In this document: positions 7,763 through 62,159 of the stretch, in pieces
Position numbering within the stretch: position 1 is the first letter of the stretch
How the letters are laid out: each line of letters starts with the position of its first letter
Source of the DNA: an uncultured Candidatus Binatia bacterium
Lineage (GTDB): Bacteria > Desulfobacterota > Binatia > UBA9968 > JAJDTQ01
Reading direction: 5' to 3'
DNA length: 64,000 bases
Assembly: GCA_964291295.2 (NCBI GenBank)
Contig: OZ219754.1
Coordinates: 2,816,001-2,880,000 of the forward strand
Position numbers and translations under genes: made by a program
Notes under the pieces: generated by a model
What the model was told of the DNA's origin: nothing
Seen by the model: the letters and a program-made list of their open reading frames with translations, nothing else
Databases searched by the model: none

Positions 7763-8142
7763 GCGGCGTCCTCGCTCATGTCCGTGAATCGGCGTGCAGG
7801 GCGGTAAGCAGAGCCTGTGCCCCCGCCCGCTGCCGTCGCTGCCCGGAACTGCGGCCGGTGGGCGCCGCTCCTTGCTTCGGTCTTGGCGCCGGCGGCTGTC
7901 AGGACATGCCAAGATGCCGCGAGGCCGTCCCCGGAGTCTGCGCCGCAGGACGTTTCGGGAGGTGAGGGGCGGGAGAACAGTTCCGGATTCTCGTCCAGAA
8001 TTCCGGAAGTGTGCAGCCTCGCCCCATTGGAAAACAGGAGGCGGGCGTCAACGGGACATGGCCCGGGAGCCCCTTGGTACTCCGATGGATCTCTGCCCCG
8101 GGAAGATTTTCTGCGGCCCAGACTCGCAGCCGAAGAGTCCGG

Positions 8143-12807: not shown

Positions 12808-13575
12808 TCAACCGGACCGGTAGGCAGCCATGAGGCGGTTCCAGTCACCGGGTCGAACCCTCCGGCGCTGAGGGTCCAGTTTGTTGACTGAACGCAGCAG
12901 CCGGCGGAGGTTCCGTTGTGCCCGCGCGTCCGGCACGGCTCCGGGAAAGAGACGCGCCTTGTCGAAGTCGATGATGTAGATCCTCGGAAACGGCTCATCG
13001 TCCCGCACCAGGATGTTGCGCAGGTTGAGATCGGCGTGGTCGATGCCCAGCGTGTGCATGAGGCGCAACGTGCGCCCGACAAGCGACAGCACCATCTCCG
13101 TCCCGGCGCCGGAGCGTTGCCCCGGAAGCGCCGCCCAGAGGTCGCGGGCCCCCGTCAACTCCCGCGTGACCAGCCAACCTCGATACCACGGGCCGATGCC
13201 CCGCGCCACCAGCGCCGCCAGCACTTCCGCGGTGGCGAGCCCCCGTTCCCGGGCCGCGGCCGTGACGGCCAGTTCCGCGAACGGCCGGGGCGGCCGGCTG
13301 ACGAACCAGTGCCGGGTGATCCGGCGCAACAGCCCTCCGTGCCGGCATGAACGCACCAGCGCGTGACCACCCTCCGGGAGCGCCACGGTCTGCAACGCGG
13401 CACGACCGAAATGGCGTGCCGGCACCTCGGCAACCGGGCTCCGCATGCGGGCGAGCAACCCGCCGGCATCCACGCCGGAGGCCACCACCATGGTCACTCC
13501 CGGCTCCGGGGACACCCGCTGGAAGCCCGCCGGCACCGTATCCCCCGGCCTGTTCGAACGCATGTTATCCGTCAC
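12808..13575 (-). CDS. kdkA: Kdo kinase family (KdkA/InaA-like LPS kinase)
   Basis: RHGGL, HADLNLRNIL, IIDFDKA, NLRRLLRS; lies directly after lpxK. Confidence 0.8.
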   Translation of the reverse strand: MTDNMRSNRPGDTVPAGFQRVSPEPGVTMVVASGVDAGGLLARMRSPVAEVPARHFGRAALQTVALPEGGHALVRSCRHGGLLRRITRHWFVSRPPRPFAELAVTAAARERGLATAEVLAALVARGIGPWYRGWLVTRELTGARDLWAALPGQRSGAGTEMVLSLVGRTLRLMHTLGIDHADLNLRNILVRDDEPFPRIYIIDFDKARLFPGAVPDARAQRNLRRLLRSVNKLDPQRRRVRPGDWNRLMAAYRSG

Positions 13576-14689
13576 CGCCGCGCGAGGAGGAACCGGCTCT
13601 CCTCACGACGTCCACGACGTGGTCCAGCAGCGCCTCGGGCCTGTCGAAGGACATCTCGACCCGCAGCGCCCGCAGCTTCCCGGCGGAGAACGGGAACCGC
13701 GCCAGCTTCACGTAGTCCTTCTCGGTCGTCACCACCATGTCCACCCGGTGCCGGCTGATCTCGCGCCAGTCCCGTTCGCTGTAGGCATGATGGTCGGGAA
13801 ACTCCAGGGTGTCGCCGATGATCCCTTCACACTCGCGGATCATCTCATAGAACCCTTCAGGCCGGGCCACCCCCGCAACCGCCAGAACCCTGCTGCCGGC
13901 CAGGGCGGCCAGCGACGATTCTTTCAGACCTTCCTCCGTGCGGCCCAGGAGCCCGCGCGGCCGGAGGCAGGCATGGAAGACCCGGGAATCGTCGAAGCGT
14001 TGTTGCAGAATCGCCCGCCAGCGGTCGCGGGCGCCCGTCACCACCAGGATGTCGGCGCGCCGCAAGGCCCGGATCGGCTCCCGGAAAGGCCCGGCCGGCA
14101 GCATCGCGCCGCTGCTGTCGGCACCCAGGAGGACCATGTCAAGGTCCCGCGCCAGCCTCCGGTGCTGGAATCCGTCGTCCAGCAGGAACAGATCCGCGCC
14201 GCCGGTCCCCTCGCTCAACGCCAGACCCGCCCGGTAGCGGTCGGCGCCGACCACCACGGTCTGCCCATGGAGGGCGCTCAACATGACCGGTTCGTCGCCG
14301 TAGTCCAGCGTGCGATCGCCCGACCGACCGCGCAGCCTTTCCGGGCTGAGGACGGCGGGCCGGGGACCGTGCTGCCGGCCGCCGTAGCCGCGGGTCAGGA
14401 TCGCGGCCTCCAGGCCGCGCCGCCTCAGGCCTTGCGCCAGCCACAGCCCGGTGGGGGTCTTGCCCGTCCCTCCCACCGTGAGATTCCCTATGCTCACGAC
14501 CGGAAGGGGCAGTTTTCGGACATTCATGCAACCGGCGTCGTAGAGCCGGTTCCTCACACCGACGACCGCGCGAAAGACCGCGCTCCAGGGCAGCAGCAGG
14601 GTCCGAAGAATCCGGCCGGCGATGCTGCGGCGGCTCCACGCCGCCCGCACCAGAGCGTTCCCCTTTCCAGCGGCGGCCGCCATGGTCAT
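13565..14689 (-). CDS. lpxK: Tetraacyldisaccharide 4'-kinase
   Basis: [40 protein letters not shown]. Confidence 0.95.
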
Positions 14690-15966
14690 CCGCGAGGTTC
14701 CGCCCCGTGACGGAGCTGCCGGCACACCAGTCGGAGACTGCGCGCCAACACCTCCGTGTCGGCATCGGCCACGTGGCGGGCGCGGCGCCCCATGGCCGCA
14801 CAGCGCGCCCGGTCGGAGAGAAGCGCGCTCACCTCCCGAACCAGCGCGTCACGCCCATCCACCTCGACGCCGCCGCCCTGCCGCAACAACTTCCGCGCCG
14901 TCTCGGCAATATTGGAACGATACCGCCCGAACAGCACGGGCTTGCCCCAGCGCGCCGGTTCGACGAGGTTGTGGCCACCCACAGGCACCATGCTCCCGCC
15001 CACGAAGGCAACGTCGGCACAACCGTAATAGCGCGGCAACTCACCCAGGGTGTCCAGCAGCAGCACCGGGCAGTCCCCCGCTGCCGCACCGCCCGCTGCG
15101 CTGCGCTTGCGGTAGCGCCACCCGCATTCCCGAAGCAGCCGCTCGACGGCACCAAACCGTTCCGGATGCCTCGGGGCCAGAATCAGCAGAAGGCCCGGAT
15201 GCCGGCGGCGCCACTCGGAAAGAGCGTCCAGCAGGATTTCCTCCTCGCCGGCGTGGGTGCTCCCCGCCACCACCACCGACCGCGGCCGGCCGCCGAGGTC
15301 CGGCAGCGGCGCCGCGGCCGCTTCGGCATGCTTGAGAGAGCCCGTCACCGTCACCTTGAGCGGGTCCACGCCCAGGGCCAGCATCCGCCCGGCGTTCTCG
15401 TCGTCCTGCATGCCGAAGCCGGCAACCCGGTCCAGCACCGGCCTGAAGAGCGCCCGAAAACGTGCGTACATCCGCGCGCCCCGGGGCGACAGGCGACCGC
15501 TGAGGACCAGCGTGGGGGTTCCCCATCGATGGGAGGCGCGAATGAAGTTCGGCCATATCTCCGTCTCCAGCAGGATGATGAGCTCCGGACGAAGCCGGCG
15601 CAGGCTTCGGGAAACCAGCCACGGCAGGTCCAGCGGGAGATAGGTCACGCCGTCGATGTCGGGCAGGGCGTCCCGGACCGTGCGGTGTCCGGTAACGGTG
15701 ACTGTGGAAACGAGCAGCTTGCGGTCCGGCCACTTCGTCTTCATCCGCCGCACCAGCGGCGCGGCGGAGCGCACCTCGCCCACGGAGGCGGCGTGGATCC
15801 AGATGGGACGGCCACCCGCGAGTGCGGCCAGCAGCTCCGGAGGATAGGCGGCAAGGCGCTCGCGCAGCCCCGCGAAGACGCTCCGGCGCCACAGGAACGC
15901 CAAAGGCCAAGCCAGCAGCGCGACAAGCAGCCCCGCATGCAAGACCGCATTGTAGAGCCCGAGCAC
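14686..15966 (-). CDS. waaA: Kdo transferase
   Basis: IWIHAASVGE, ETEIWPN, AGSTH.GEE, APRHPER, VGGS...GGHN..EP. Confidence 0.95.
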   Translation of the reverse strand: MLGLYNAVLHAGLLVALLAWPLAFLWRRSVFAGLRERLAAYPPELLAALAGGRPIWIHAASVGEVRSAAPLVRRMKTKWPDRKLLVSTVTVTGHRTVRDALPDIDGVTYLPLDLPWLVSRSLRRLRPELIILLETEIWPNFIRASHRWGTPTLVLSGRLSPRGARMYARFRALFRPVLDRVAGFGMQDDENAGRMLALGVDPLKVTVTGSLKHAEAAAAPLPDLGGRPRSVVVAGSTHAGEEEILLDALSEWRRRHPGLLLILAPRHPERFGAVERLLRECGWRYRKRSAAGGAAAGDCPVLLLDTLGELPRYYGCADVAFVGGSMVPVGGHNLVEPARWGKPVLFGRYRSNIAETARKLLRQGGGVEVDGRDALVREVSALLSDRARCAAMGRRARHVADADTEVLARSLRLVCRQLRHGAEPRG

Positions 15967-15970
15967 CGGC

Positions 15971-17713
15971 CTACGCCTCCGTGGAAAGACCTTCGCCGAC
16001 GGCCTGAAGACCGTAGAGGCGGCGATATTCTCTTTGCCTGGCCAGGAGCTCGGCATGGGTGCCTTCTTCCACGATGGTTCCCTTGGCCAGCACGACGATG
16101 CGGGTGGCGTTGCGGACGGTGGACAGCCGGTGAGCGATGACCACGCTCGTGCGGTTCTTCATGAGGGCTTCAAGGGCATCCTGGACCGATCGCTCCGACT
16201 CCGAGTCGAGAGCGGACGTCGCTTCGTCGAGGATCAGTATGGGGGCGTTCTTGAGCACCGCCCGCGCGATGGCGATGCGTTGCCGCTGCCCGCCGGAGAG
16301 TTTCAGGCCAAGCTCGCCGATGACCGTATCGTAGCCGGCCGGCAGCGCAGTGATGAAGTCATGGGCATGGGCGGCCTTGGCAGCCATCACCACGTCGTCC
16401 ATGTGCCGGGTCGGGTCGCCGTAGGAAATGTTGTTTCGCACGCTGTCGTTGAAGAGAAACGTGTGCTGGGTCACGATTCCGATCTGCCGCCGGAGCGACT
16501 CCAGGGACAGCTTCCGGATGTCCACGCCATCCAGGGCGATGCTGCCCGAGGTGACATCGTAGAACCGCGGAATCAACGCCGACAAGGTGGTCTTGCCGGC
16601 TCCGCTCATGCCCACCAGCGCCACCGTCTCGCCGCGGCGGACCTCCAGATTGATACCGGTCAACACCGGCTCCTTCCGGTAGCCGAATCCGACATCGCGG
16701 AAGGCGATACGGTCCGAGAAAGGCGCGGCGGGAACGGCGTCCGGAGCGTCGGCAATATCCAGGGGGGCGTCCAGGACATCGAAGATCCGGTCCCCTCCGG
16801 CGATGCCCTGATAGATTTCCGGAAAGGTCCGGCCGAGGTGCTTGACCGGCTCGTATACCAGGAACACGGCGGTGAGAAACGCAAAGAACTCGCCCGCCGT
16901 ACGTCCGCCGTCCATGACCGCGTTGCCGCCGTACCACAGGACCCCGACGATCCCCAATCCCGCCAGCAACTCCATCGCCGAGGGAATCATGGCTCTGGCG
17001 CGGCTGGCCTTCATGGTGTGGCGCAGAATATCACGGTTCTCCCGGTTGAACCGTTCGAGCTCGTAACGCTCCATCCCGAAGGCCTTCACGATGGAACTGC
17101 CCTGAAGGCTCTCCTGAAGAATCGCCGCCATGGTGCCGGTGCTGGCCTGACTTCTTCGGGTCGCCCGTCGGATGCGGCGGGTGAGTCGCCTGACGGGAAG
17201 GACCGAGCCGGGAAATGCCACGAAGGCGATGGTGGCCAGCAGCCAGTCCATGTAGAAGGCCACCGCCGTCAACGCCACCACCGAAGTGCTGTTGCGCGCC
17301 ACCGACGCGACCGAACTGGTGAGGGCGACCCGCACCAGCGTCACATCGCTGGTCACCCTGGAAAGCAGCGTGCCCGTGGGGTGCCGGTAGATGTACGCCA
17401 GCGACAGCCATTGCAGCCGCTCGCACATGGCCGACCGCAGGTCGCGAACGATCCGCTGGCCAACATGTTCCATCAGGTAGACTTGGCCGAAATTGCAGGC
17501 GCCGCGAATGCCGAACACCAGCAGCACCGTGACAAGGATGTATCCCAGCCTGGCGCGGTCCTGGCTCCCGAACACGTCGTCCACCATGTCCCGAACCAGA
17601 AAGGGCATGGCCGCCGTGGTGGCGCTGTACCACAGCATGCAGAGTACGGCGCCGCAGAAATGCGGCCACAGGTAGGGGCGCAGGTACTGAAGCAGACGCC
17701 GGTAGATGCTCAT
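15971..17713 (-). CDS. msbA: Lipid A flippase ABC transporter
   Basis: TMD plus NBD (GMSGAGKT, LSGGQRQR, LDEATS), between lpxB and waaA. Confidence 0.9.
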   Translation of the reverse strand: MSIYRRLLQYLRPYLWPHFCGAVLCMLWYSATTAAMPFLVRDMVDDVFGSQDRARLGYILVTVLLVFGIRGACNFGQVYLMEHVGQRIVRDLRSAMCERLQWLSLAYIYRHPTGTLLSRVTSDVTLVRVALTSSVASVARNSTSVVALTAVAFYMDWLLATIAFVAFPGSVLPVRRLTRRIRRATRRSQASTGTMAAILQESLQGSSIVKAFGMERYELERFNRENRDILRHTMKASRARAMIPSAMELLAGLGIVGVLWYGGNAVMDGGRTAGEFFAFLTAVFLVYEPVKHLGRTFPEIYQGIAGGDRIFDVLDAPLDIADAPDAVPAAPFSDRIAFRDVGFGYRKEPVLTGINLEVRRGETVALVGMSGAGKTTLSALIPRFYDVTSGSIALDGVDIRKLSLESLRRQIGIVTQHTFLFNDSVRNNISYGDPTRHMDDVVMAAKAAHAHDFITALPAGYDTVIGELGLKLSGGQRQRIAIARAVLKNAPILILDEATSALDSESERSVQDALEALMKNRTSVVIAHRLSTVRNATRIVVLAKGTIVEEGTHAELLARQREYRRLYGLQAVGEGLSTEA

Positions 17714-18888
17714 TGCGGTGCCCGGGTGTCGGACTGCGCCAACAGGGCCATGGCCATGTCGGCCACGCGCGCCGGAGCGCCCGGAGGTCCCAGCCGCTCC
17801 CGCACCGCCTCAAGCCTGCGTACCACGGCGCCGCGCACTTCCGGCTCCAGCATGCGCCGGGTTTCCGCCAGGATGCGCTCCGCCGTCACCTCGTTCTGGA
17901 TCAGCTCCGGCACCACCCGTTCGCCCGCGATGATATTGACCATGCCGATGTGATCCACGCGGACCAGCAGACGCCCGATCCAGTAGCTCAAGGGTGACAG
18001 GCGGTAGGTGATCACCATGGGTTTCCCGAGCAGCCCCGCTTCCAGCGTGGCCGTGCCGGAAGCCACCCACACCAGATCCGCCGCCGCCAGCATGTCGTAC
18101 GTGCCGCCCTCGGCGATGCGGACGGTGACGGGCGATCCGGCGATGGCCCGTTCCAGTCCGCTCCGCTCGATGGTGCTGGCGCGTATCAGCAGGAACTGCG
18201 CGTCGCGTTCCCGGGCCAGGCGGCGGGCGGCCTCGAGCATGGGGTCCAGGAGCGCGGCAACCTCCTTCCCCCGGCTTCCGGGCATGACCGCCACCGTGAG
18301 CTTCTCCGGGTCCAGTGCCACGGACCGAAGACTGGTCTCGCGGTCCCGCCGCGGCTTCACCACGTCCACCAGGGGATGCCCCACGAAGGCGGCTCCGGCA
18401 ACGCCGAACGCCCTGTAGAGGTCGGCCTCGAAGGGAAAAACGACGGCCAGCGCATCCACGTTCGACGCCACCTGCCGGATGCGGTACCCGCGCCACGCCC
18501 ATATCTGCGGGCCGATGTAGTACAGAACGGCGATGCCGTGGCGGCGCGCCAGCCGCGCCAGCCGCATGTTGAATTCCGGAAAGTCGATGAGGATGAGCAA
18601 GGCCGGCCGCACCTCCAGGAGCAGCCGGCGCAACATCCGGTAGGCACGCCAGATGTGACGAAGATTGCCGGCAAGCTCCGAGAAACCCACGCTCGCGACT
18701 CTCGCGATATCGTGGACGACCCGCATGCCCGCTTGCCGGAGGTTGACTCCGCCCATGCCGAAAAACTCCGCCGAGGGCTCCCGTTGCCGCAGATGGTGCA
18801 CCAACTCCGCGCCCCGGGCATCTCCCGACGCCTCTCCCGCCACCAGCATGATGTCCAATGGCCGCCGCACTGCCGAATGACGGGCCAT
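17710..18888 (-). CDS. lpxB: Lipid A disaccharide synthase
   Basis: AGEASGD, IDFPEFN, PQIWAWR, VGHPL, PGSR, SGTATLE. Confidence 0.96.
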   Translation of the reverse strand: MARHSAVRRPLDIMLVAGEASGDARGAELVHHLRQREPSAEFFGMGGVNLRQAGMRVVHDIARVASVGFSELAGNLRHIWRAYRMLRRLLLEVRPALLILIDFPEFNMRLARLARRHGIAVLYYIGPQIWAWRGYRIRQVASNVDALAVVFPFEADLYRAFGVAGAAFVGHPLVDVVKPRRDRETSLRSVALDPEKLTVAVMPGSRGKEVAALLDPMLEAARRLARERDAQFLLIRASTIERSGLERAIAGSPVTVRIAEGGTYDMLAAADLVWVASGTATLEAGLLGKPMVITYRLSPLSYWIGRLLVRVDHIGMVNIIAGERVVPELIQNEVTAERILAETRRMLEPEVRGAVVRRLEAVRERLGPPGAPARVADMAMALLAQSDTRAPQ

Positions 18889-19820
18889 TACAGCCGCTCA
18901 CTGATCGCCGACGCAATCTCCAGCGCGTGCAACCCGTCCTCGCCGCTCACCAGAGGGCTCTTGCGGGTGGCCACCGACTCCAGAAACGATTCAATCTGGT
19001 CCCGCAGAGCGTCGCCATCCTCGGCGGCGATCATCTCCCCCCGAATCCCCGCCCAGCCCCGGCTCCGGTCCTCCACCCGGTAGACCTCGGCCGTCTTGGC
19101 GCCGTAGTCCAGGGAGATATAGGTGTCCGACTGGAAGAACCGTATCTTCCGCTCGCGTTTCATCGACACCCGGCTGGCGGTCACGTTGGCCACGCAACCG
19201 TCCTCGAAGCGAATGCGCGCATTGGCGATGTCCGGTCTGTCCGTGAGCACGGCAACCCCGTTGGCGTCAATGGCGGCTATGGGCGCACGGACCAGGCTGG
19301 CGATGACGTCGATGTCGTGGATCATCAGGTCGAGCACCACGTCCACATCCGTACCCCGGGTCACGAACGGTGCCAGCCGGTGGCACTCGACGAACCTGGG
19401 CTCCAGGATGAACCGGGTGAGTTCGCGTACCACCGGATTGAAGCGTTCGAGGTGACCTACCTGGAGGATGCGGCCGTTTCGCCGCGCCAGATCCACCAGC
19501 TTCCGTCCGTCCGCCACCGAGTCCGTAATGGGCTTCTCCACCAGCACATCGACACCGGCGGCCAGGCAGTCCCGGGCCACCCGGCCGTGTTGCCGCGTGG
19601 GTACCGCGATGCTGACGCAGCGGACCCTGTCCAGCAGCTCCCGATAGTCCGCCACCGCGGGCGCCTGATAGCGCTCGCCCGCCTCCCGGGCCCGTGCCTC
19701 GTCGATATCGGCCACGCCCACCAGCCTGGCGACCGGTGACGCGGCGTACTTGGCCGCGTGCAGGCTGCCCGCGTACCCGACTCCAATCACTCCAACCGCG
19801 ATGGGCTCCGTTATCGTCAT
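18888..19820 (-). CDS. Gfo/Idh/MocA oxidoreductase, probable UDP-GlcNAc 3-dehydrogenase (GnnA-like)
   Basis: VIGVGYAG, VEKP, VGHLERFNP, DLMIHDID; occupies the gnnA position upstream of lpxB. Confidence 0.8.
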   Translation of the reverse strand: MTITEPIAVGVIGVGYAGSLHAAKYAASPVARLVGVADIDEARAREAGERYQAPAVADYRELLDRVRCVSIAVPTRQHGRVARDCLAAGVDVLVEKPITDSVADGRKLVDLARRNGRILQVGHLERFNPVVRELTRFILEPRFVECHRLAPFVTRGTDVDVVLDLMIHDIDVIASLVRAPIAAIDANGVAVLTDRPDIANARIRFEDGCVANVTASRVSMKRERKIRFFQSDTYISLDYGAKTAEVYRVEDRSRGWAGIRGEMIAAEDGDALRDQIESFLESVATRKSPLVSGEDGLHALEIASAISERL

Positions 19821-20659
19821 TCCGGTTCCGGGGCCAGCGCCACCACGGCCAGACCTGCGTCATCCGCCGCCGCCAGCAACGCCTCCTTCTCCAACAGGAT
19901 GGATCGTCCCGCCTCCACCGCCAGCACCCCTCCCCCGGCACGCCTCAGGGTCTCGATGGTTCCGGGACCGATGGCGGGCATGTCAAAGCGCAGATCCTGG
20001 TGCGGCTTGCTCATCTTCACCACCACCACCGGACCTTCCGCCAGTGCGCCGGCGCGGCGAATGGCCGCATCCGTGCCTTCGATGGCTTCCACCGCGAGAA
20101 TCACGCCCTCCTTCAGCACCAGCGTCTGGCCGATTCCCATGCGGCCCAGCGTCTTGGTCATGGGGATGCCGAGGCGCACATCCTTCCACTGTTCCGGATC
20201 GGGCGAGGTTCGGGTAAGCACGCCCGGCTGTTGCGGGATGATCCGCTTCAGGAAAAGCGTCGACTCCAGAACGCGAATGCCCTCGCTCTCCAACTCGGCG
20301 GCCACTCCGCGCAACAATTGATCGTCGTCACGGCCCGGCGTTCGGGCCAGCAGCGCCAGCCCTCTGGCATCGGGCCGGAAATTGGAAAACAGCCGTACCT
20401 TGCGGATCCCTCCGGCCATGACGGCATGATGCACGTCCGCCTTGCGAAATGTGCGGATGATCTTTCCCAGTTGTCCGACGCGAATCCAGGTGACCTCCTC
20501 CACGAACTTCCCGATCTCTTCAGCCGTCTCGCCGCGGTGCGCCACCGCAATCACGCGGACGCCGGCCTCCCGCGCATTTCGGGCGAATATCAGCGGGAAC
20601 CGACCGCTGCCGGCAATCAGGCCGACCTTGTCGATGGTCATTTCCCGGAGTTCGCCCAT
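19817..20659 (-). CDS. lpxI: UDP-2,3-diacylglucosamine pyrophosphatase LpxI
   Basis: GLIAGSG.FP, IGQT, AVEAIEGTD, KP.QDLRFDMP.IG. ATG 20659 overlaps the lpxA-relic stop (alternative start 20641). Confidence 0.92.
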   Translation of the reverse strand: MGELREMTIDKVGLIAGSGRFPLIFARNAREAGVRVIAVAHRGETAEEIGKFVEEVTWIRVGQLGKIIRTFRKADVHHAVMAGGIRKVRLFSNFRPDARGLALLARTPGRDDDQLLRGVAAELESEGIRVLESTLFLKRIIPQQPGVLTRTSPDPEQWKDVRLGIPMTKTLGRMGIGQTLVLKEGVILAVEAIEGTDAAIRRAGALAEGPVVVVKMSKPHQDLRFDMPAIGPGTIETLRRAGGGVLAVEAGRSILLEKEALLAAADDAGLAVVALAPEPE

Positions 20660-20890
20660 CAGCGGCGGATTCCTCGCCGGGAGCTCCAGCCGAATCCGAT
20701 CATCGATCCACCTCACGGGTTCGGGGGACTGCCCGAAGGACACTGTTCAAGGCGTCCTTCAAACGAAGGCTGGAGCGGAACAGCAGGACCAGGCCGCGCC
20801 TTGCCGGCATGGCGGACCAGCAAGGGGCACGCCGGTCCGGACGACAGGCTGAAGGAAGGTCCGGACGACAGTCCGGACATGCCCCCACTC
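20659..20890 (-). pseudogene. lpxA: Decayed C-terminal remnant of UDP-GlcNAc acyltransferase
   Basis: Sits in the lpxA slot between fabZ and lpxI. Fragments across frames: GGMSG (20886-20872), DLP, FSLSSG, LLFRSSLRLKDALNSVLRAVPRTREVDR (20786-20703), MIGFGWSSRRGIRR* (20703-20659). Confidence 0.8.
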
Positions 20891-20923
20891 GCCACCTTCC
20901 AGAGCGTCCTGCGGCGCGGGCTC

Positions 20924-21352
20924 CTAGACCGCCATCTCCATCCCGGACAGTTCCGCCTCGGCCACCTGCCTGCCGTCCACCGTCACGTGACCGGCCAGGC
21001 GCCAGTAATGTTTGCGCCGCCGGGAAACCTCCACCTCGATCCTCAACTGGTCGCCGGGCTCCACCGTTTGCTTGAACCGCACCCGGTCGAGCCCGGTCAG
21101 GACGAGGACCCTGTCCGCTTCCTGTCCGCTGCACTTGGCGAGAACCGCGCTCACCTGGGCGATGGCCTCGCAGATCAATACGCCCGGCATGACCGGCTTG
21201 TCGGGGAAATGGCCCTGAAAGAAGCCTTCGTTGATACTCACGTTCTTGATCCCCACGACACGCCGGTCGGGCTCCAGCTCCACGATCCGGTCCACCAGGA
21301 GGAAGGGATATCGATGAGGAATCAGTTTTCGTATCTCGGTGACGTCCATCAT
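20924..21352 (-). CDS. fabZ: 3-hydroxyacyl-ACP dehydratase
   Basis: PHRYPFLLVDR, FFQGHFP..PVMPGVLI.EA.AQ. Confidence 0.96.
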   Translation of the reverse strand: MMDVTEIRKLIPHRYPFLLVDRIVELEPDRRVVGIKNVSINEGFFQGHFPDKPVMPGVLICEAIAQVSAVLAKCSGQEADRVLVLTGLDRVRFKQTVEPGDQLRIEVEVSRRRKHYWRLAGHVTVDGRQVAEAELSGMEMAV

Positions 21353-21413
21353 GTCTTCACGGAACTCCCCGGCGCGGCGCCTCACCAGCCCATCGTTACC
21401 GAGAGACAGCGCG

Positions 21414-22454
21414 TCAACCCTGCCGCGACGACGCGCGCATGCGTCGTTCGATGGCCGAAACCCGCCGCCACAGGGCCGGCAGTTTCGGCAGCAGCCGCAT
21501 GGTCCGAAGCCACTGACCGTGAGGCGCGGCCTCCACCAGGCCCGACAGCAGGGAGCCGGACGGAACCGACCGCATCACGTTGCTCTTCGGTCCGATGACC
21601 GACCTTGCACCGATCTCCACATGATCATTGATGCCGGCCTGCCCGGAAACCATCACATCGTCGCCCAGCACGGCACTGCCGGCGATTCCCGTCTGGGCAA
21701 CGATCAGACAGCGTTCACCAATGACCACATTGTGTCCGATCTGCACGAGATTGTCGATTTTCGTGCCGCTCCCGATCCGGGTGCTGCCAATGGTGGCCCG
21801 GTCCACGGTGGTGTTCGCGCCGATCTCCACCTTGTCGCCGATCTCCACGATACCGGCCTGGGGTATCTTGAGACGTGCCGGACCGTGCCCGGCGTAACCG
21901 AACCCGTCGCTTCCGATCACCACGCCGGCGTGGAGTATGACGCGGTCGCCGATCCGGCACCCCTCGGACACGGTCACGTTGGAATGGAGCACGCAGCCCT
22001 CGCCGACCTGTGCCCCCGCGCCGATGACCACTCCGGGCATGAGCACCGTCCCGGCGCCGACTCTGGCGTTCCGTCCGACGTAGCAGTGTGGATAGAGTGC
22101 GGCCTCCGGACCGATGACGGCGCCGGGGTCGACAACCGCCAAGGGGCTTGTGCCGGCGTCATGGACCGGCGGGGGATTGAACAGTGCGTGGATGCGGGCG
22201 AACGCGCGGTAGGGGTCGTCGACCCGCAGAAGATTCAGGACCGCGCCGGTGGCCGACTCGCCGGCCACGATAACCGCGCTGGCCTTGCAGGAAGTCAGGT
22301 GCCGCCGGTACCGCGGGCTGGCGAGAAAGGTGATATCCCCCGGACCCGCATCCTCAATGGACGACACCTTCTCGATGGTCGCGTCGGGGTCGCCGATCAC
22401 CCGTCCGCCGACCAACTCGGCGAGCTCCGCGAGCGATTTGCCTTTGCGCGTCAC
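21414..22454 (-). CDS. lpxD: UDP-3-O-acylglucosamine N-acyltransferase
   Basis: Hexapeptide repeats, IGSDGFGY, EIGANTTVDR, KIDNLVQIGHNV. Confidence 0.96.
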   Translation of the reverse strand: MTRKGKSLAELAELVGGRVIGDPDATIEKVSSIEDAGPGDITFLASPRYRRHLTSCKASAVIVAGESATGAVLNLLRVDDPYRAFARIHALFNPPPVHDAGTSPLAVVDPGAVIGPEAALYPHCYVGRNARVGAGTVLMPGVVIGAGAQVGEGCVLHSNVTVSEGCRIGDRVILHAGVVIGSDGFGYAGHGPARLKIPQAGIVEIGDKVEIGANTTVDRATIGSTRIGSGTKIDNLVQIGHNVVIGERCLIVAQTGIAGSAVLGDDVMVSGQAGINDHVEIGARSVIGPKSNVMRSVPSGSLLSGLVEAAPHGQWLRTMRLLPKLPALWRRVSAIERRMRASSRQG

Positions 22455-22978
22455 CTGTCCGTGTCGGCCGGTTGGTTGTTGTAGCGTTCGTCGTAGAGGC
22501 TGATCACATTGTCCGTGATATCGGTTCCCTTGTCGGTGTAGAGCAACTGACCTCGTTCGAGGATCATGGTGAAGTTGCTCGTCCTGCCGAATTCCGCGAT
22601 GATCTTCTGCAGATCCTTGAGGATCGAGTCGGTCAACTCGCGCTCTCTGAGGGAAAGCTCCTCCCGCATGTCCCTTGAGTCGCGCTCCCAGTCTCGCACG
22701 CGAAGCTGCAGTCGCCGCTGCGCCTTGGCCCGCTCGCTGGCCTTCATCAGCAGGGCCTGCTTTTCGAGTTCGCTTTTCTGCTTCTCAATGGAGGCCCTTT
22801 CCTTTGCCAGCGCCTCCTGCCTGCGCTGGACGCTGTCCTGGAAGGCCGCGCGCGCCTCCTTGCCACGCTTCGATTCGATCATGGCCTTCTGGAGGTTCAC
22901 GAAGCCGACCTTGAGTTCCTGGCCCCACGCGGGAATGGTCGGTATCGCCAGCAGAGCAATCAACAGGACTCGAACCAC
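22451..22978 (-). CDS. skp: OmpH/Skp periplasmic chaperone
   Basis: Signal peptide, KVGFVNLQK, coiled coil, DITDNVI; between bamA and lpxD. Confidence 0.9.
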   Translation of the reverse strand: MVRVLLIALLAIPTIPAWGQELKVGFVNLQKAMIESKRGKEARAAFQDSVQRRQEALAKERASIEKQKSELEKQALLMKASERAKAQRRLQLRVRDWERDSRDMREELSLRERELTDSILKDLQKIIAEFGRTSNFTMILERGQLLYTDKGTDITDNVISLYDERYNNQPADTDR

Positions 22979-23011: not shown

Positions 23012-25405
23012 TCAGAGGCCGCCGACCGCGCCGATGGCGAAACCGACAATCTCCTTGTGATCGGTGGGTTCCGCGTTCAGCGGCACTGCCCAACTCAAGT
23101 TCACCGGGCCGATGGGCGAACGCCACTGCATCGCCAGACCCACCGAGCGCTTGAGATCCTCGATGCTTATGTTCTCGGACGGCCCGAACGCCTGTCCCTG
23201 GTCGAAGAACGCCGAACCCCTGAAGCCCCACTGCTGCAGGATCGGAAAATGCAGCGCCGCCTTCAGGATCAATTGCTTGTTGCCTCCCACCGCCTCGGGA
23301 TCATCACACTCCGGATCGTCGCCCGGACACTCCTGCGGACCCAGGGTACGGTACTCGTAACCACGCACCGAGTAGATGCCTCCGGCGAAGTAGCGTTCGA
23401 ACAGCGGCAATTCGCGATCATTCCAGGACTCTGCGTAACCGATCCGCCCGCCCAGCATCAGGGCGAAGTTCTCACCCCACTCGAAGTCCTTGAGGATGGG
23501 GTAGTACCATGTCAGCGAGGCGTCGCTCCGCATGAATCGGTTGTCGCCCCCCAGTCCGGCGAGTTTGACCGACAGCACCGACCGCACCCCCTCGGTGGGC
23601 GAGAAGAAGTGGTTGCGCGTGTCGTACCGCAGCCTTGTCCGGACGGCGCTGGTGAGGGACCTGCCGGGCTTGATGCTCAACGGCGCGTCGGCGTCCACGT
23701 CCGTGATCTTGGAACGGAACAGTTCGTAGCCGATATCGCCGTGGAGATGGTCCAGGATGGAGAAGCCCGGTTCCATGTAGGGTCCGTCGCCGCGCAGGAC
23801 GTCGGCGCGGCGGCCGAAGTAGGGCAGCCGGACATAACGCATGGGCACGCCGATACGGGTGGCAAACCCGCTGCGCCGGTTGGTCCAGGAAGTGTACTCG
23901 ACGGTGGTATGAACGACATCGAGGCCCAAGTCCGCACGGCTGCCGAAGACACGCGGCTCCACCAGGCCGACCACGATATCCTGATCGGTATCGCTGAGGT
24001 CGAGGCTGGCCGATACCCGCCTGCCGGTGCCGAACAGATTGCGCTCCTCAAGCGAGGTTCGGAACGAGAAGGCGCTGGCGGTGCTGTAGCCGGCGCCGAC
24101 GCTGAACGTTCCGGTAGGCGCCTCCTCAACCTTCACCAGCAGGTCCACCTGGTCTTCCTTCCCGGACTTTTCGGTGGAGACGACAACGTCCTTGAAGAAA
24201 CCGGTCCGCAACAAGGCGTTGCGGCTCTCCGTCACCCGGGTGGAAGAGAAGCGCCCCTTCTCCGCCACTTCCAGCTCGCGGCGAATCACCTTGTCCCGGG
24301 TCTTGACGTTCCCGGCGATCTTCACCTGGTTGAAGAACACCGGCGGCCCGCGCTTGATGGCGTACGTGACGTTCACCAGACGGCCGTCGGGGTCGAACCG
24401 GGTGACGGGCGAAACGTCCGCGAACGCATAACCGCGGTCGGCATACCGTTGCTTGAGAGCGGTCACGTCATTGAGCAGCCGGCTCCTTCGAAAGATCTGC
24501 CCCGATGTCAGGGTCACGTCTTCCAGCAATCGGCCTGGGTCGTCCTCGAGGTCCCCCCCCAGCCTTACCTCGCCGACCCGATAACGTTCGCCCTCCTGAA
24601 TCCGGATGACGACCTCCAGCCACTCGTCGCGTGTGAGTATGACAGGCTCGTCGATCTTGTGGTTGACGAATCCGTGATCGTAATAGAAGGAGGACAACAG
24701 CGTGGTGTCGTTGGTCAGCACGTCCGGATCCAGAATGCCGCGGCTGCTGAACGGAAGGAACCACTTCTCCTTCGTGTTCATGATGTCCTTCAACTCATCG
24801 TCGGAGAACTCCCGGTTTCCCTCGAAGGTGATCTTCCTGATCCGCAGGGTCCTGCCTTCGGTAATGGTGACGGTGACGGTGGTCTGGTTGTTCTCCTCGG
24901 CCGTCAGGGCATAGTCGACGCGGGTGTTGACGTGCCCCGCCTCGCTGTAGAGCCGCAGCACCCGTTGCAGGCCTTCCTGGAGCCGGCCGCCATCCAGAGC
25001 GGTCCGCAGCCGGATCCCCAAGGCGGCTTCGATGTCTTCCGTCGACAGCTTGTCGTTGCCCAGAATCTCCACCTGCTTGACGTACGGCCGCTCTTCGACC
25101 GCGTAGGTCAGGATCCCCTCAGCGGAGAAATCCGCGCTCACGTCGTCGAAAAAGCCCATGCGGTAGATGGCCTTGACGTCGCGGCTTACCGCGTCCTGAT
25201 CGAAGGGCTGCCCCGGCTGCACCTGAATGCTCAGACGGATGGCGTCCTCGTCGACCCGCAGGTTGCCCTGGACGCGGACCTCGTTGACGAGCGCAGCCGC
25301 CGGCGCAAGACTGTTCCAGGCCGCAAGACCGAACGCGGCTGCGAGGAATGCGGCGGCAAGACGGCCCGCAGTCTTGCCGCCAATTTTTCCCGCAGTCTTG
25401 CCCAT
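23012..25405 (-). CDS. bamA: Outer membrane protein assembly factor BamA
   Basis: POTRA repeats, GNVKTRDKVIRRE, SVRGY, W.SPIGP. Start position approximate. Confidence 0.95.
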   Translation of the reverse strand: MGKTAGKIGGKTAGRLAAAFLAAAFGLAAWNSLAPAAALVNEVRVQGNLRVDEDAIRLSIQVQPGQPFDQDAVSRDVKAIYRMGFFDDVSADFSAEGILTYAVEERPYVKQVEILGNDKLSTEDIEAALGIRLRTALDGGRLQEGLQRVLRLYSEAGHVNTRVDYALTAEENNQTTVTVTITEGRTLRIRKITFEGNREFSDDELKDIMNTKEKWFLPFSSRGILDPDVLTNDTTLLSSFYYDHGFVNHKIDEPVILTRDEWLEVVIRIQEGERYRVGEVRLGGDLEDDPGRLLEDVTLTSGQIFRRSRLLNDVTALKQRYADRGYAFADVSPVTRFDPDGRLVNVTYAIKRGPPVFFNQVKIAGNVKTRDKVIRRELEVAEKGRFSSTRVTESRNALLRTGFFKDVVVSTEKSGKEDQVDLLVKVEEAPTGTFSVGAGYSTASAFSFRTSLEERNLFGTGRRVSASLDLSDTDQDIVVGLVEPRVFGSRADLGLDVVHTTVEYTSWTNRRSGFATRIGVPMRYVRLPYFGRRADVLRGDGPYMEPGFSILDHLHGDIGYELFRSKITDVDADAPLSIKPGRSLTSAVRTRLRYDTRNHFFSPTEGVRSVLSVKLAGLGGDNRFMRSDASLTWYYPILKDFEWGENFALMLGGRIGYAESWNDRELPLFERYFAGGIYSVRGYEYRTLGPQECPGDDPECDDPEAVGGNKQLILKAALHFPILQQWGFRGSAFFDQGQAFGPSENISIEDLKRSVGLAMQWRSPIGPVNLSWAVPLNAEPTDHKEIVGFAIGAVGGL

Positions 25406-25558
25406 CTTGCTGATGGTGTTTTTTCTGTTGGTAATTCGCACGGGTCCGTTCACGACGCACCGGGTCTGCCTGTGTCTGCTAACAAGTTCCCACCCCGTTG
25501 TAAAGCGTGGAACCCCTGGTCGAAGGCACGCGTCCGATCCGATGCGCACACCGCGGGG

Positions 25559-57512: not shown

Positions 57513-58853
57513 TCAGGTGATCCAACCCAGCCTTCCGGCGCTCTCCTTCAGCAGAAGAACGTCCAGAACCTTGCTGTTCAGACGGTGAACGAAGCCGTAG
57601 ACCCGGTCCTGCAAGGGAATGACCGTGGTGAACTCGGGCGGAAAGGCGCCGATGCTTGAGGATACCTGACGGATGCGGGTGTCCGGCAACCTGCCCTTGA
57701 CGATCAACCGGCCTTCCTTCAGCAACAGGTCATAGTCATAATCCGGCATGCGCGACGGCAGTTTCGACGCAATGGCGATACCCAGGCGCGGCACCTGGGT
57801 GGGGAACTCCAGCCGAAGATGGTAGGCCTTGCCCAGGTCTTCCATCGTGTAGGCGTGGCCGTAGCGCCGCTCGCGCTCCACCTTCTCGACGAATCGCGAA
57901 TCGTAGAATCCCTCCACGGGCACCGGGATTCGCCGCAGCAACCTGCCGCGCCGCGACAGCAACGGCCGCAGCAGCATGGCCAGCGGAACGCCGTAAAGCG
58001 CCGCGCCCACCGTGACCTGCTCCACCGGAACCGCGCTGAAGACGCTCCGGCGCAGGCGATACAACACCTCGGCCAACGCCACCAGGAAACCTGCCAGGAT
58101 GTACAGGTTGACGCCCTTGCCGAAGGCCAGGCCCAGCCCCTCCAGCGCGACCCCCACGAGGACCAGCACCACCGGATAGAGGATCATGTTGAGGATCATG
58201 TTCAGGGCCGTGGCCAAGCCGTCCACGATGCCGTGACGGCCCGCCAGCTCCGCCAGATCGTTTCGCGAGGAAGCGGGCAGGGCGCCGAGCAGCGGCTGCA
58301 ACAGCCGCAGGGTGATTCGCAACAGGCTGGAATCGCTGGTCTGGATCCGTTCCGCCCATTCGTCGAAACCCATGGGCAACTGGCCCGGGAAAACCTTGGG
58401 CTCCCGCGGTACGGGGGCCTCCTCAGGTTCTTCTTCAGGCTCTTCCGCCGGCGCGGGGCTGGCCGCGGCCACCGGAGCGGGGACCACTGCGGCGGGAGCC
58501 GCGGGCGTGGCGTCCGCCGCGGTGGCTTCCGCAGCCGGTGCCGGCGCGGGTTCCGCGGCTTCGCCGCCGGTACGGAACCTCGACTCGAACGCATCCCCGA
58601 AATCGACATCCTGGTGCAACTCCCGCGCCCGTTCGATCAGCACGGTTTCCGATTCCACGTTGTTCGGGTCCGTCACACAGCAGTCCACCGGACAAACCGC
58701 GGCACAGGCTTCGTAATCGTGGAACCCGACGCATTCGGTGCACAGCACCGGATCGATGACGTACAGGTCATCCTGTTGCGTGATGGCTTCGTTGGGACAC
58801 TCGGGTTCGCAAGCGCCGCAGTTGATGCACTCGCTGGTTATCATCGTCGCCAT
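57513..58853 (-). CDS. YfhL-like 2x[4Fe-4S] ferredoxin fused to an Ala/Pro linker, a membrane region and a C-terminal beta domain
   Basis: CINCGACEPECP and CTECVG....ACAAVCPVDC; the rest has no function I can recognise. Confidence 0.85.
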   Translation of the reverse strand: MATMITSECINCGACEPECPNEAITQQDDLYVIDPVLCTECVGFHDYEACAAVCPVDCCVTDPNNVESETVLIERARELHQDVDFGDAFESRFRTGGEAAEPAPAPAAEATAADATPAAPAAVVPAPVAAASPAPAEEPEEEPEEAPVPREPKVFPGQLPMGFDEWAERIQTSDSSLLRITLRLLQPLLGALPASSRNDLAELAGRHGIVDGLATALNMILNMILYPVVLVLVGVALEGLGLAFGKGVNLYILAGFLVALAEVLYRLRRSVFSAVPVEQVTVGAALYGVPLAMLLRPLLSRRGRLLRRIPVPVEGFYDSRFVEKVERERRYGHAYTMEDLGKAYHLRLEFPTQVPRLGIAIASKLPSRMPDYDYDLLLKEGRLIVKGRLPDTRIRQVSSSIGAFPPEFTTVIPLQDRVYGFVHRLNSKVLDVLLLKESAGRLGWIT

Positions 58854-61016: not shown

Positions 61017-62159
61017 TCATCTCCCTCCAGCCTCGACGGGGCCGGGTCCATCCTCGAAGCATCCGTCGATCTGGGCACAGACGTACCGCTGCTGCGCCCA
61101 CGTCATCTCGGGATAGACGGGCAAGGCCAGCGAGGTTCGCGACGCCGCCTCGGCCTCCGGACAGTCCCCCCGACGGTAGTCGAGCGATTCGAAGCACTCC
61201 TGGAGGTGCAGCGGCAAGGGATAGTATATTTCCGTCGCCACGCGGCGCGCTTCCAGAAACGACCGCAGCCGGTCCCGCTCCGACGAACGGATGACGAACT
61301 GGTTGTAGACATGGCCGGGGTTGTCCTGGGGAAGGACAACCCGCTCCGCCGATACCGCCCTGGCCAGGAGTTCCCGGTACCGCCGGGCGTTTTCCCGGCG
61401 CGACTCGGACCATTCCCGGACGTGTCTCAGCTTGACGCGCAGCACCGCGGCCTGAAGGCTGTCGAGTCTGAAGTTTCCGCCCACCAGCCTGTGGTGATAC
61501 TTGGGCGACTCGCCGTGAACCCGCAGCATGCGGATCCGCCGGGCCAGCTCTTCGTCGTCGGTGATCACCATCCCGCCATCGCCAAAGGCTCCAAGGTTCT
61601 TGCTGGGATAGAAGGAGAAGCAGCCCACGTCGCCGATGGTGCCCGCCGCCCGGCCCCGGGCATCGGTGCCGCCGAAGGACTGCGCGGCATCCTCGACCAC
61701 CGCCACCCGCGCACCCTCGGCCAACTCCTTCAGGGGGTCGAGGTCCATGCAGCGGCCGAACAGATGGACGGGCATGATGGCCCGGGTCCGGGGGCTCATG
61801 CGCGCCGCCACGGCCGCGGGATCCATGTTGAAAGTATGGGGCTCGATGTCCACGAACACCGGCCGCGCGCCCACTCGCGCGACCACGCCGGCGGTGGCGA
61901 CGAACGAGTAGGCCGACGTGATGACCTCGTGGCCCGGACCGATCTCCAGGGCCATGAGCGAAGCCAGCAACGCGTCGGTGCCGGACGAGACGCCGATGGC
62001 GAACCGCGCGCCGGCATGGGCGGCGATCTCCCGCTCCAACGCCTCCACCTCCGGGCCCAGGATGAATCTCTGTGACGCGCAGACTCTCAGGACCGCTTCC
62101 TGAACCTCCTCGCGAATGGTCTCGAACTGGGCTTTCAGGTCCAGCAATGGCAATTTCAT
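61017..62159 (-). CDS. DegT/DnrJ PLP sugar aminotransferase (GnnB/WbpE-like)
   Basis: SSGTDAL, PVHLFG, EDAAQ, SFYPSKNLG..GDGG. Confidence 0.92.
   Translation of the reverse strand: MKLPLLDLKAQFETIREEVQEAVLRVCASQRFILGPEVEALEREIAAHAGARFAIGVSSGTDALLASLMALEIGPGHEVITSAYSFVATAGVVARVGARPVFVDIEPHTFNMDPAAVAARMSPRTRAIMPVHLFGRCMDLDPLKELAEGARVAVVEDAAQSFGGTDARGRAAGTIGDVGCFSFYPSKNLGAFGDGGMVITDDEELARRIRMLRVHGESPKYHHRLVGGNFRLDSLQAAVLRVKLRHVREWSESRRENARRYRELLARAVSAERVVLPQDNPGHVYNQFVIRSSERDRLRSFLEARRVATEIYYPLPLHLQECFESLDYRRGDCPEAEAASRTSLALPVYPEMTWAQQRYVCAQIDGCFEDGPGPVEAGGR

Follow-up and report, generated by a model that had tools for sequence, protein, structure and literature searches.

A relic of the operon copy of lpxA in a lipid A gene cluster of an uncultured Binatia bacterium whose genome retains an intact second lpxA

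The window analysed in this study, a stretch of 64,000 nucleotides with a G+C content of 66%, carries on its minus strand a cluster of outer-membrane and lipid A genes in the order bamA, skp, lpxD, fabZ, an intergenic gap, lpxI, an oxidoreductase gene, lpxB, msbA, waaA, lpxK and a Kdo-kinase family gene (Table 1). Every gene of this cluster has an open frame and a match to its own Pfam family, which bears out the statement of a preliminary description of this DNA that lpxD, lpxI, lpxB, lpxK, waaA, kdkA and msbA keep their motifs; for lpxD this was also evident from TIGR01853. Since lpxI starts at the ATG at 20659-20657, the gap between fabZ and lpxI extends from 20660 to 20923 and comprises 264 nt. 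Two ORFs cross this gap, and neither of them produced a Pfam match. A scan of positions 20500-21100 against Rfam returned no family at E ≤ 1, and consensus scans of the same interval did not find promoter-like or terminator-like sites.

Table 1. Features of the lipid A cluster, of the fabZ-lpxI gap and of a distant aminotransferase gene in the window.
Feature	Position	Strand	Evidence and remarks
bamA	23012-25549	-	Pfam; intact
skp	22451-22978	-	Pfam
lpxD, intact	21414-22454	-	TIGR01853, 343.9 bits (cut-off 242.5); Pfam
fabZ, intact	20924-21385	-	Pfam FabA, E 3e-34; stop TAG 20926-20924
Truncated left arm of a MITE of ~172 nt	20846-20924	-	blastn, nhmmer; terminal inverted repeat 20924-20909
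Two copies of a 14-nt direct repeat	20871-20858, 20847-20834	-	pattern positions; first copy inside the MITE remnant
Spacer, ~59 nt	20787-20845	-	between MITE remnant and relic; length varies between strains
lpxA1 relic, last 42 codons and stop	20659-20786 (128 nt)	-	tblastn, blastn, nhmmer, frameshift-tolerant alignment
lpxI, intact	19817-20659	-	Pfam LpxI_N, E 2e-40; LpxI_C, E 1e-45; start ATG 20659-20657
Gfo/Idh/MocA oxidoreductase, GnnA-like candidate UDP-GlcNAc 3-dehydrogenase	18888-19820	-	Pfam; NF040723
lpxB	17710-18888	-	Pfam; open
msbA	15971-17713	-	Pfam; open
waaA	14686-16056	-	Pfam; open
lpxK	13565-14725	-	Pfam; open
Kdo-kinase family gene (kdkA)	12808-13575	-	Pfam; open
DegT/DnrJ/EryC1 aminotransferase, GnnB candidate	61017-62159	-	PF01041, 383.7 bits; no NCBIfam cut-off reached

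To compare this gap with that of related bacteria, 30 lpxI loci were collected, namely the one of the window's own genome, 24 from the same genus and 5 from the same order. An lpxA gene is located between fabZ and lpxI in 19 of these loci (14 of the genus and 5 of the order), while it is missing in 11. The LpxA encoded at this operon position in relatives is referred to as LpxA1, and the LpxA encoded at an unlinked locus as LpxA2. The preliminary description had read the gap as a frameshifted remnant of lpxA and had proposed a tBLASTn search with the LpxA proteins of close relatives. When 19 operon LpxA proteins of relatives were used as queries against a small database of 11 gaps, the relic was matched with 64% identity over 28 amino acids (E 7e-9), pairing ILFRSRLRLKDAVQRVCREVPRTSEVEQ against LLFRSSLRLKDALNSVLRAVPRTREVDR, and blastn aligned 160-172 nt, including 60 nt of lpxI, with 77-79% identity. 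A DNA profile built from 19 lpxA1 genes aligned gap nt 141-261 with profile positions 652-773 of 773 (nhmmer, E 4.4e-16). Likewise, a frameshift-tolerant alignment brought LpxA1 residues 217-256 onto gap nt 138-256 through one -1 shift near 20704, which joins ...EVDR to MIGFGWSSRRGI; the score of this alignment was 115, compared to 29.3 ± 4.1 in dinucleotide shuffles, and none of the 100 shuffles scored as high. The reading as an lpxA remnant thus holds for the last 128 nt, in which the C-terminal helical domain of LpxA is present by homology with its last 42 codons only, but not for the part further upstream.

The TGA of the relic (20661-20659) overlaps the ATG of lpxI as TGATG, as had been noticed before, and a GAGGA motif is located within the relic at 20675-20671, 12 nt before the lpxI ATG. 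A single open lpxA reading frame is absent from the gap, given the -1 frameshift and the lack of about 650 nt of the gene. Of the several indels and the large deletion claimed earlier, the deletion was found, while a single frameshift was demonstrable. Because only the last 42 codons remain and these are frameshifted, we regard the lpxA1 remnant as dead. With the LpxA2 of the same genome as tblastn query, the gap yielded chance-level pieces only, the best with 16.9 bits and on the wrong strand; the relic was detectable only with the LpxA1 of relatives and not with LpxA2.

The N-terminal left-handed beta-helix with the catalytic His was not found in the gap. The first 137 nt scored 29 against LpxA1 residues 1-216, a value reached by 71 of 100 shuffles, whose mean was 32 ± 5, in agreement with the earlier statement that this part of the protein is gone. 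All peptide strings quoted in the preliminary description do occur in the three minus-strand frames of 20640-20940, but the portion GGMSG..DLP..FSLSSG is not LpxA by the same score. Local alignment of the first 150 nt with the fabZ-lpxA1 spacers of relatives, each extended by the first 90 nt of lpxA1, remained at chance in 17 of 19 cases, and only two alignments (L008 and L033) rose above it with z values of about 4. A 10-nt match to the start of lpxA1 that was seen by eye was dropped, as nhmmer gave it no support.

A blastn search of the same 137 nt against the genome placed nt 1-64 in a dispersed repeat with more than 25 copies, to which the gap belongs from nt 1 to about nt 78. Profiles of this repeat gave 37 and then 46 nhmmer matches in the genome at E ≤ 1e-3. 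Both ends could be parsed in 13 of the 22 best copies, 9 of the 13 being 172 nt long, and the copies have terminal inverted repeats of 16 nt; most of the parsed copies are flanked on either side by a TA that is part of CTAG. With terminal inverted repeats, a target-site duplication and many short copies devoid of ORFs, the repeat has the properties of a MITE. The copy in the gap was placed at 20932-20846 by an 85-nt profile or at 20934-20863 by the full-length profile (positions 12-85), and retains only the left 60-80 nt of the element. Its insertion point is the CTAG of the fabZ stop codon, where the TA of TAG served as target and the element begins with the G. Since the MITE remnant begins at the fabZ stop and covers the stretch in question, the string GGMSG is MITE DNA. 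Insertion into CTAG with duplication of TA is a trait of the IS630/Tc1-mariner group, to which the target preference of the element would point. The element shares with MITEs of that type the length of about 172 nt, the 16-nt terminal inverted repeats, the TA flanks in CTAG, the dozens of copies and the lack of a reading frame, and the gap copy differs from them by its truncation. The spacer between the MITE remnant and the relic, which includes the second copy of the 14-nt direct repeat, showed no significant likeness to lpxA1, to the fabZ-lpxA1 spacers of relatives or to the MITE.

A second, diverged copy of the ~172-nt MITE lies in the window at 7928-8132 on the plus strand, and copies are found at about 45 other places across the 3.7-Mb genome. 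In locus L010 of another species (genome G007), a different element of about 160 nt with terminal inverted repeats of about 28 nt sits at the CTAG of the fabZ stop, while this site is empty in its sister L012 (G018). MITEs that target TA seem to land repeatedly at the fabZ stop. Among the 19 loci with lpxA1, the fabZ-lpxA1 spacer measures 15-39 nt in 16 and 179, 159 and 471 nt in L008, L013 and L031, respectively, and these long spacers may also be insertions.

Logan contigs from three runs of a single study (X1, X2 and X3) cover the gap region. X1 is identical to the window over 20300-21600 and may be the source of the assembly itself. X2 is identical over 20702-21038, with 20538-20701 and 21039-21332 lying outside its cover. 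X3 represents a diverged strain of about 97% identity, in which one contig of 13.4 kb spans fabZ, the gap and lpxI; this contig shares the deletion and the frameshift with the window, is free of indels in the relic and contains no lpxA. The earlier assertion that the gap reflects real decay and not one sequencing error is supported by this strain. In place of window positions 20798-20864 (67 nt), X3 has 30 other letters, 26 of which match by eye positions 20799-20828 of the window, so that in net terms the two strains differ by an indel of 37 nt in the spacer. Judged by eye, X3 thereby lacks one copy of the 14-nt direct repeat and the terminal part of the MITE remnant.

When the entire genome (3.70 Mb in 3 contigs, 99.1% complete) was searched for lpxA, a single full-length match was obtained. 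This intact gene, located at G000:C1:862979-863776 and about 1.97 Mb away, encodes LpxA2, a protein of 266 amino acids that scored 297.5 bits with TIGR01852 (cut-off 231; model positions 1-254 of 254), 309.2 bits with NF003657 (cut-off 226) and 78.9 bits with PF13720. Its SHVGH aligns with AHIAH of the E. coli chain 1lxa with both His residues paired (SHxxH), and we take the second His of these motifs to be the catalytic His125 of E. coli LpxA. The SHxxH motif, and with it the catalytic His, is kept in all 30 LpxA2 sequences examined. A search of the same genome also located an intact lpxC at G000:C1:166372-167172. The neighbours of the LpxA2 gene are a YacG-like gene and a gene with a MoCF_biosynth domain, none of them for lipid A.

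LpxA2 and LpxA1 are 37-43% (about 40%) identical, and 34 positions are fixed differently in the two groups. All 30 LpxA2 sequences have Asn for the Asp next to the second (catalytic) His, Tyr for another conserved His, and Ser or Ala for the Lys of the QDLKY motif, while LpxA1 retains E. coli-like residues at these Asp, His and Lys sites. These substitutions weigh against the view that LpxA2 acts as an LpxA. Since 13 of 28 species have no other LpxA while the rest of their pathway is intact, we infer that LpxA2 would perform the acyl-ACP-dependent acylation of position 3 of the UDP-sugar.

An LpxA2-type match (61-100% identity) was found in each of 41 genomes, comprising the window's own, 24 from its genus and 16 from its order. 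A further match, of the LpxA1 type (37-43%), was present in 30 of them, and the 11 genomes left with one lpxA coincide with the 11 in which no such gene lies between fabZ and lpxI. Across the whole genus, LpxA1 occurs in 15 of 28 genomes and LpxA2 in all 28. Because LpxA2 is present in 41 of 41 genomes and LpxA1 in 30, the possession of both paralogues is ancestral in the order, with LpxA1 being the one that is lost. A tree of concatenated LpxI, oxidoreductase, FabZ and LpxA2 sequences (1008 columns, 30 rows) needed five changes of state, five of which are forced by starred branches, and not one of 200 bootstrap trees was compatible with a single change. With the unlinked LpxA2 as the only marker, the tree needed seven changes, at least four of them forced by starred branches. 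Read as what they are, namely gene trees from four genes, three of which are linked to the deletion site, and not a species tree, these results would require that LpxA1 was lost independently at least four to five times in the genus.

The remains of lpxA1 differ from species to species. In locus L025 (genome G022), the gap of 196 nt keeps profile positions 1-92 and 705-773 around a clean internal deletion; this is a younger relic in which ~92 nt from the start and ~69 nt from the end of the gene survive, with 81% amino acid identity to relatives, and the LpxA2 of this genome shows 98.1% identity to the LpxA2 of a sister species in which lpxA1 is still present. L024 retains profile positions 719-773, i.e., the last 55-75 nt, and in L007, L015 and L022 only about 10 codons remain at the end of the gene. 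In L023 and L027, fabZ overlaps lpxI, and in L010, L012 and L014 other sequence is found in place of the lpxA1 end. The different deletion ends of the relics argue for separate loss events.

Taken together, these observations make it highly probable that the gap records the fate of one member of an old pair of paralogues, in which the operon lpxA1 was deleted down to a relic as an ordinary loss of a spare copy, with LpxA2 remaining. The lineage would have inherited LpxA1 in a cluster bamA-skp-lpxD-fabZ-lpxA1-lpxI-gnnA-like-lpxB and LpxA2 at an unlinked site, and in this genome a deletion of about 650 nt would have left the last 42 codons of lpxA1. A TA-targeting MITE would have colonised the site beside the fabZ stop and later been truncated, with one breakpoint of the lpxA1 deletion, or of a later deletion, lying inside the MITE. 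The MITE insertion may have come before or after the lpxA1 deletion. The lpxI ribosome-binding site and the stop/start overlap are part of the extreme 3' end of lpxA1, which is probably why this end persists; since only 6 of the 11 lpxA1-less loci keep at least the last 25 nt, such retention for lpxI translation is not general. An intact second lpxA elsewhere in the genome speaks for the loss of a spare copy and not for a new lipid A route. With ordinary pseudogene decay of a redundant paralogue the locus shares the large deletion, the frameshift, a pace of change above that of the flanking genes and the different deletion ends in sister species; it differs in that the gene concerned is the first of an essential pathway and has been lost at least four to five times in one genus. 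What is left is a modest evolutionary result, an uncultured lineage with two old LpxA paralogues that has discarded the operon copy again and again, and its lpxA1-bearing and lpxA1-less sister species are natural pairs for asking what the second LpxA does.

One reading would add to this explanation rather than replace it. LpxA1, being E. coli-like, might O-acylate UDP-GlcNAc, and LpxA2 might N-acylate UDP-GlcNAc3N supplied by the GnnA-like and DegT enzymes. We consider such a division of labour unlikely. The GnnA-like dehydrogenase gene is located beside lpxI in 30 of 30 loci, and the best NCBIfam match of the oxidoreductase encoded in the window is NF040723, UDP-GlcNAc 3-dehydrogenase, with 204.7 bits, which is below the cut-off of 450. 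The DegT gene is the only strong DegT/DnrJ/EryC1 gene in the genome (the next best of 4 matches has 27 bits), and this aminotransferase has been retained by 38 of 41 relatives (E ≤ 1e-60). Judged by sequence, the two are candidates for GnnA and GnnB, which would make UDP-GlcNAc3N. However, no gnnA-like or DegT gene was found within 3 kb of an LpxA2-like gene in any of 26 loci from other lineages.

The comparison with solved structures leans towards different substrates for the two LpxAs. The best match of LpxA2 is 3hsq with 208.7 bits, although this is only 3 bits ahead of the next one, 4eqy (205.8 bits). LpxA1, in contrast, is most like proteobacterial LpxAs (best match 4e6u, 262 bits), and among its full-length matches 3hsq ranks last (186.4 bits). 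We take 3hsq to be the LpxA of Leptospira interrogans. The Lys of QDLKY is missing from LpxA2 as well as from the 3hsq chain, but the latter has an Asp after the catalytic His and a His at the sites where LpxA2 has Asn and Tyr. No convincing convergent substitutions in LpxA2 accompany the loss of LpxA1 in five sister pairs, as only two columns differ in at least three of the five pairs and neither shows a consistent replacement, which argues against the division of labour.

According to a review (PMC4624066), L. interrogans LpxA uses the 3-amino sugar and is selective for UDP-GlcNAc3N. A precedent is Capnocytophaga canimorsus (PMC3342949), in which lpxA and lpxA' occur in one genome together with gnnA and gnnB, and the authors link the second lpxA copy to a hybrid GlcN3N-GlcN backbone. 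The combination of two lpxA genes with 3-amino sugar genes is shared with the lineage studied here; both copies are kept in one operon in C. canimorsus, whereas here the copies are unlinked and the operon copy is deleted in 13 of 28 species. A full-text literature search for Binatota with lipopolysaccharide returned nothing on lipid A genes as judged by titles and the start of abstracts, a search on lpxA1/lpxA2 returned nothing on paralogues of this kind in the titles and abstract starts of the matches listed, and a search combining LpxA, UDP-GlcNAc3N and Leptospira interrogans matched no paper. If the division of labour were true, loss of LpxA1 would switch the backbone from mixed GlcN/GlcN3N to pure GlcN3N. 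It is doubtful that the repeated lpxA1 deletions represent repeated switches to an all-amide, GlcN3N-only lipid A. Such a switch would be close in spirit to the route through a 3-amino sugar suggested in the preliminary description, with a second LpxA in the place of LpxD.

Selection for an lpxI leader could also account for the relic itself. With its TGATG end, the short frame MIGFGWSSRRGIRR would couple translation to lpxI, the relic would supply the GAGGA ribosome-binding site, and this end is retained in the six loci mentioned above despite differing upstream breakpoints. We nevertheless judge this unlikely, since the other five lpxA1-less loci manage without it and such a role would need the last 20-30 nt only and not all 128. 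In addition, the differences between X3 and the window amount to 6 of 128 nt in the relic, 6 of 359 in the aligned part of lpxI and 12 of 462 in fabZ, so that, as far as these small counts go, conservation is no higher in the relic than in fabZ and lpxI.

The preliminary description had put forward three explanations for an lpxA relic in an otherwise intact operon, namely a displaced or foreign lpxA elsewhere, an early stage of LPS loss, or an LpxA-independent pathway in which LpxD or another N-acyltransferase acts on a 3-amino sugar. The first proved right in that an intact lpxA is encoded elsewhere and wrong in its wording, because LpxA2 is an old paralogue kept in 41 of 41 genomes and not a recently displaced or foreign copy. 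The other two are very improbable. All that speaks for them is that the cluster has no lpxA at the customary position, and against this stand an lpxA above curated cut-offs at another locus, conserved in all relatives, as well as intact lpxC, lpxD, lpxI, lpxB, lpxK, waaA, msbA and bamA genes, which contradict LPS loss; the idea of a bypass, which formed the headline of the description, is refuted by the intact lpxA elsewhere in the genome. The striking claim that lipid A is made without LpxA is thereby removed. A relic in the canonical operon is insufficient for such a claim, and a whole-genome search for paralogues is needed first.

That a full lpxA is truly present between fabZ and lpxI and was lost by artefact can practically be dismissed, since nothing in the assembly of 3 contigs supports it, the independently built contigs of three runs agree, one of them from a diverged strain with the same architecture, and 12 other species of the genus are also without lpxA1, none of the 10 loci examined having lpxA between fabZ and lpxI.

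Elsewhere in the window, an ORF at 57513-58853 on the minus strand encodes a protein of 446 amino acids. Its family match, to a YfhL-type 4Fe-4S dicluster ferredoxin, is confined to residues 1-77, and the other ~370 have no NCBIfam match.
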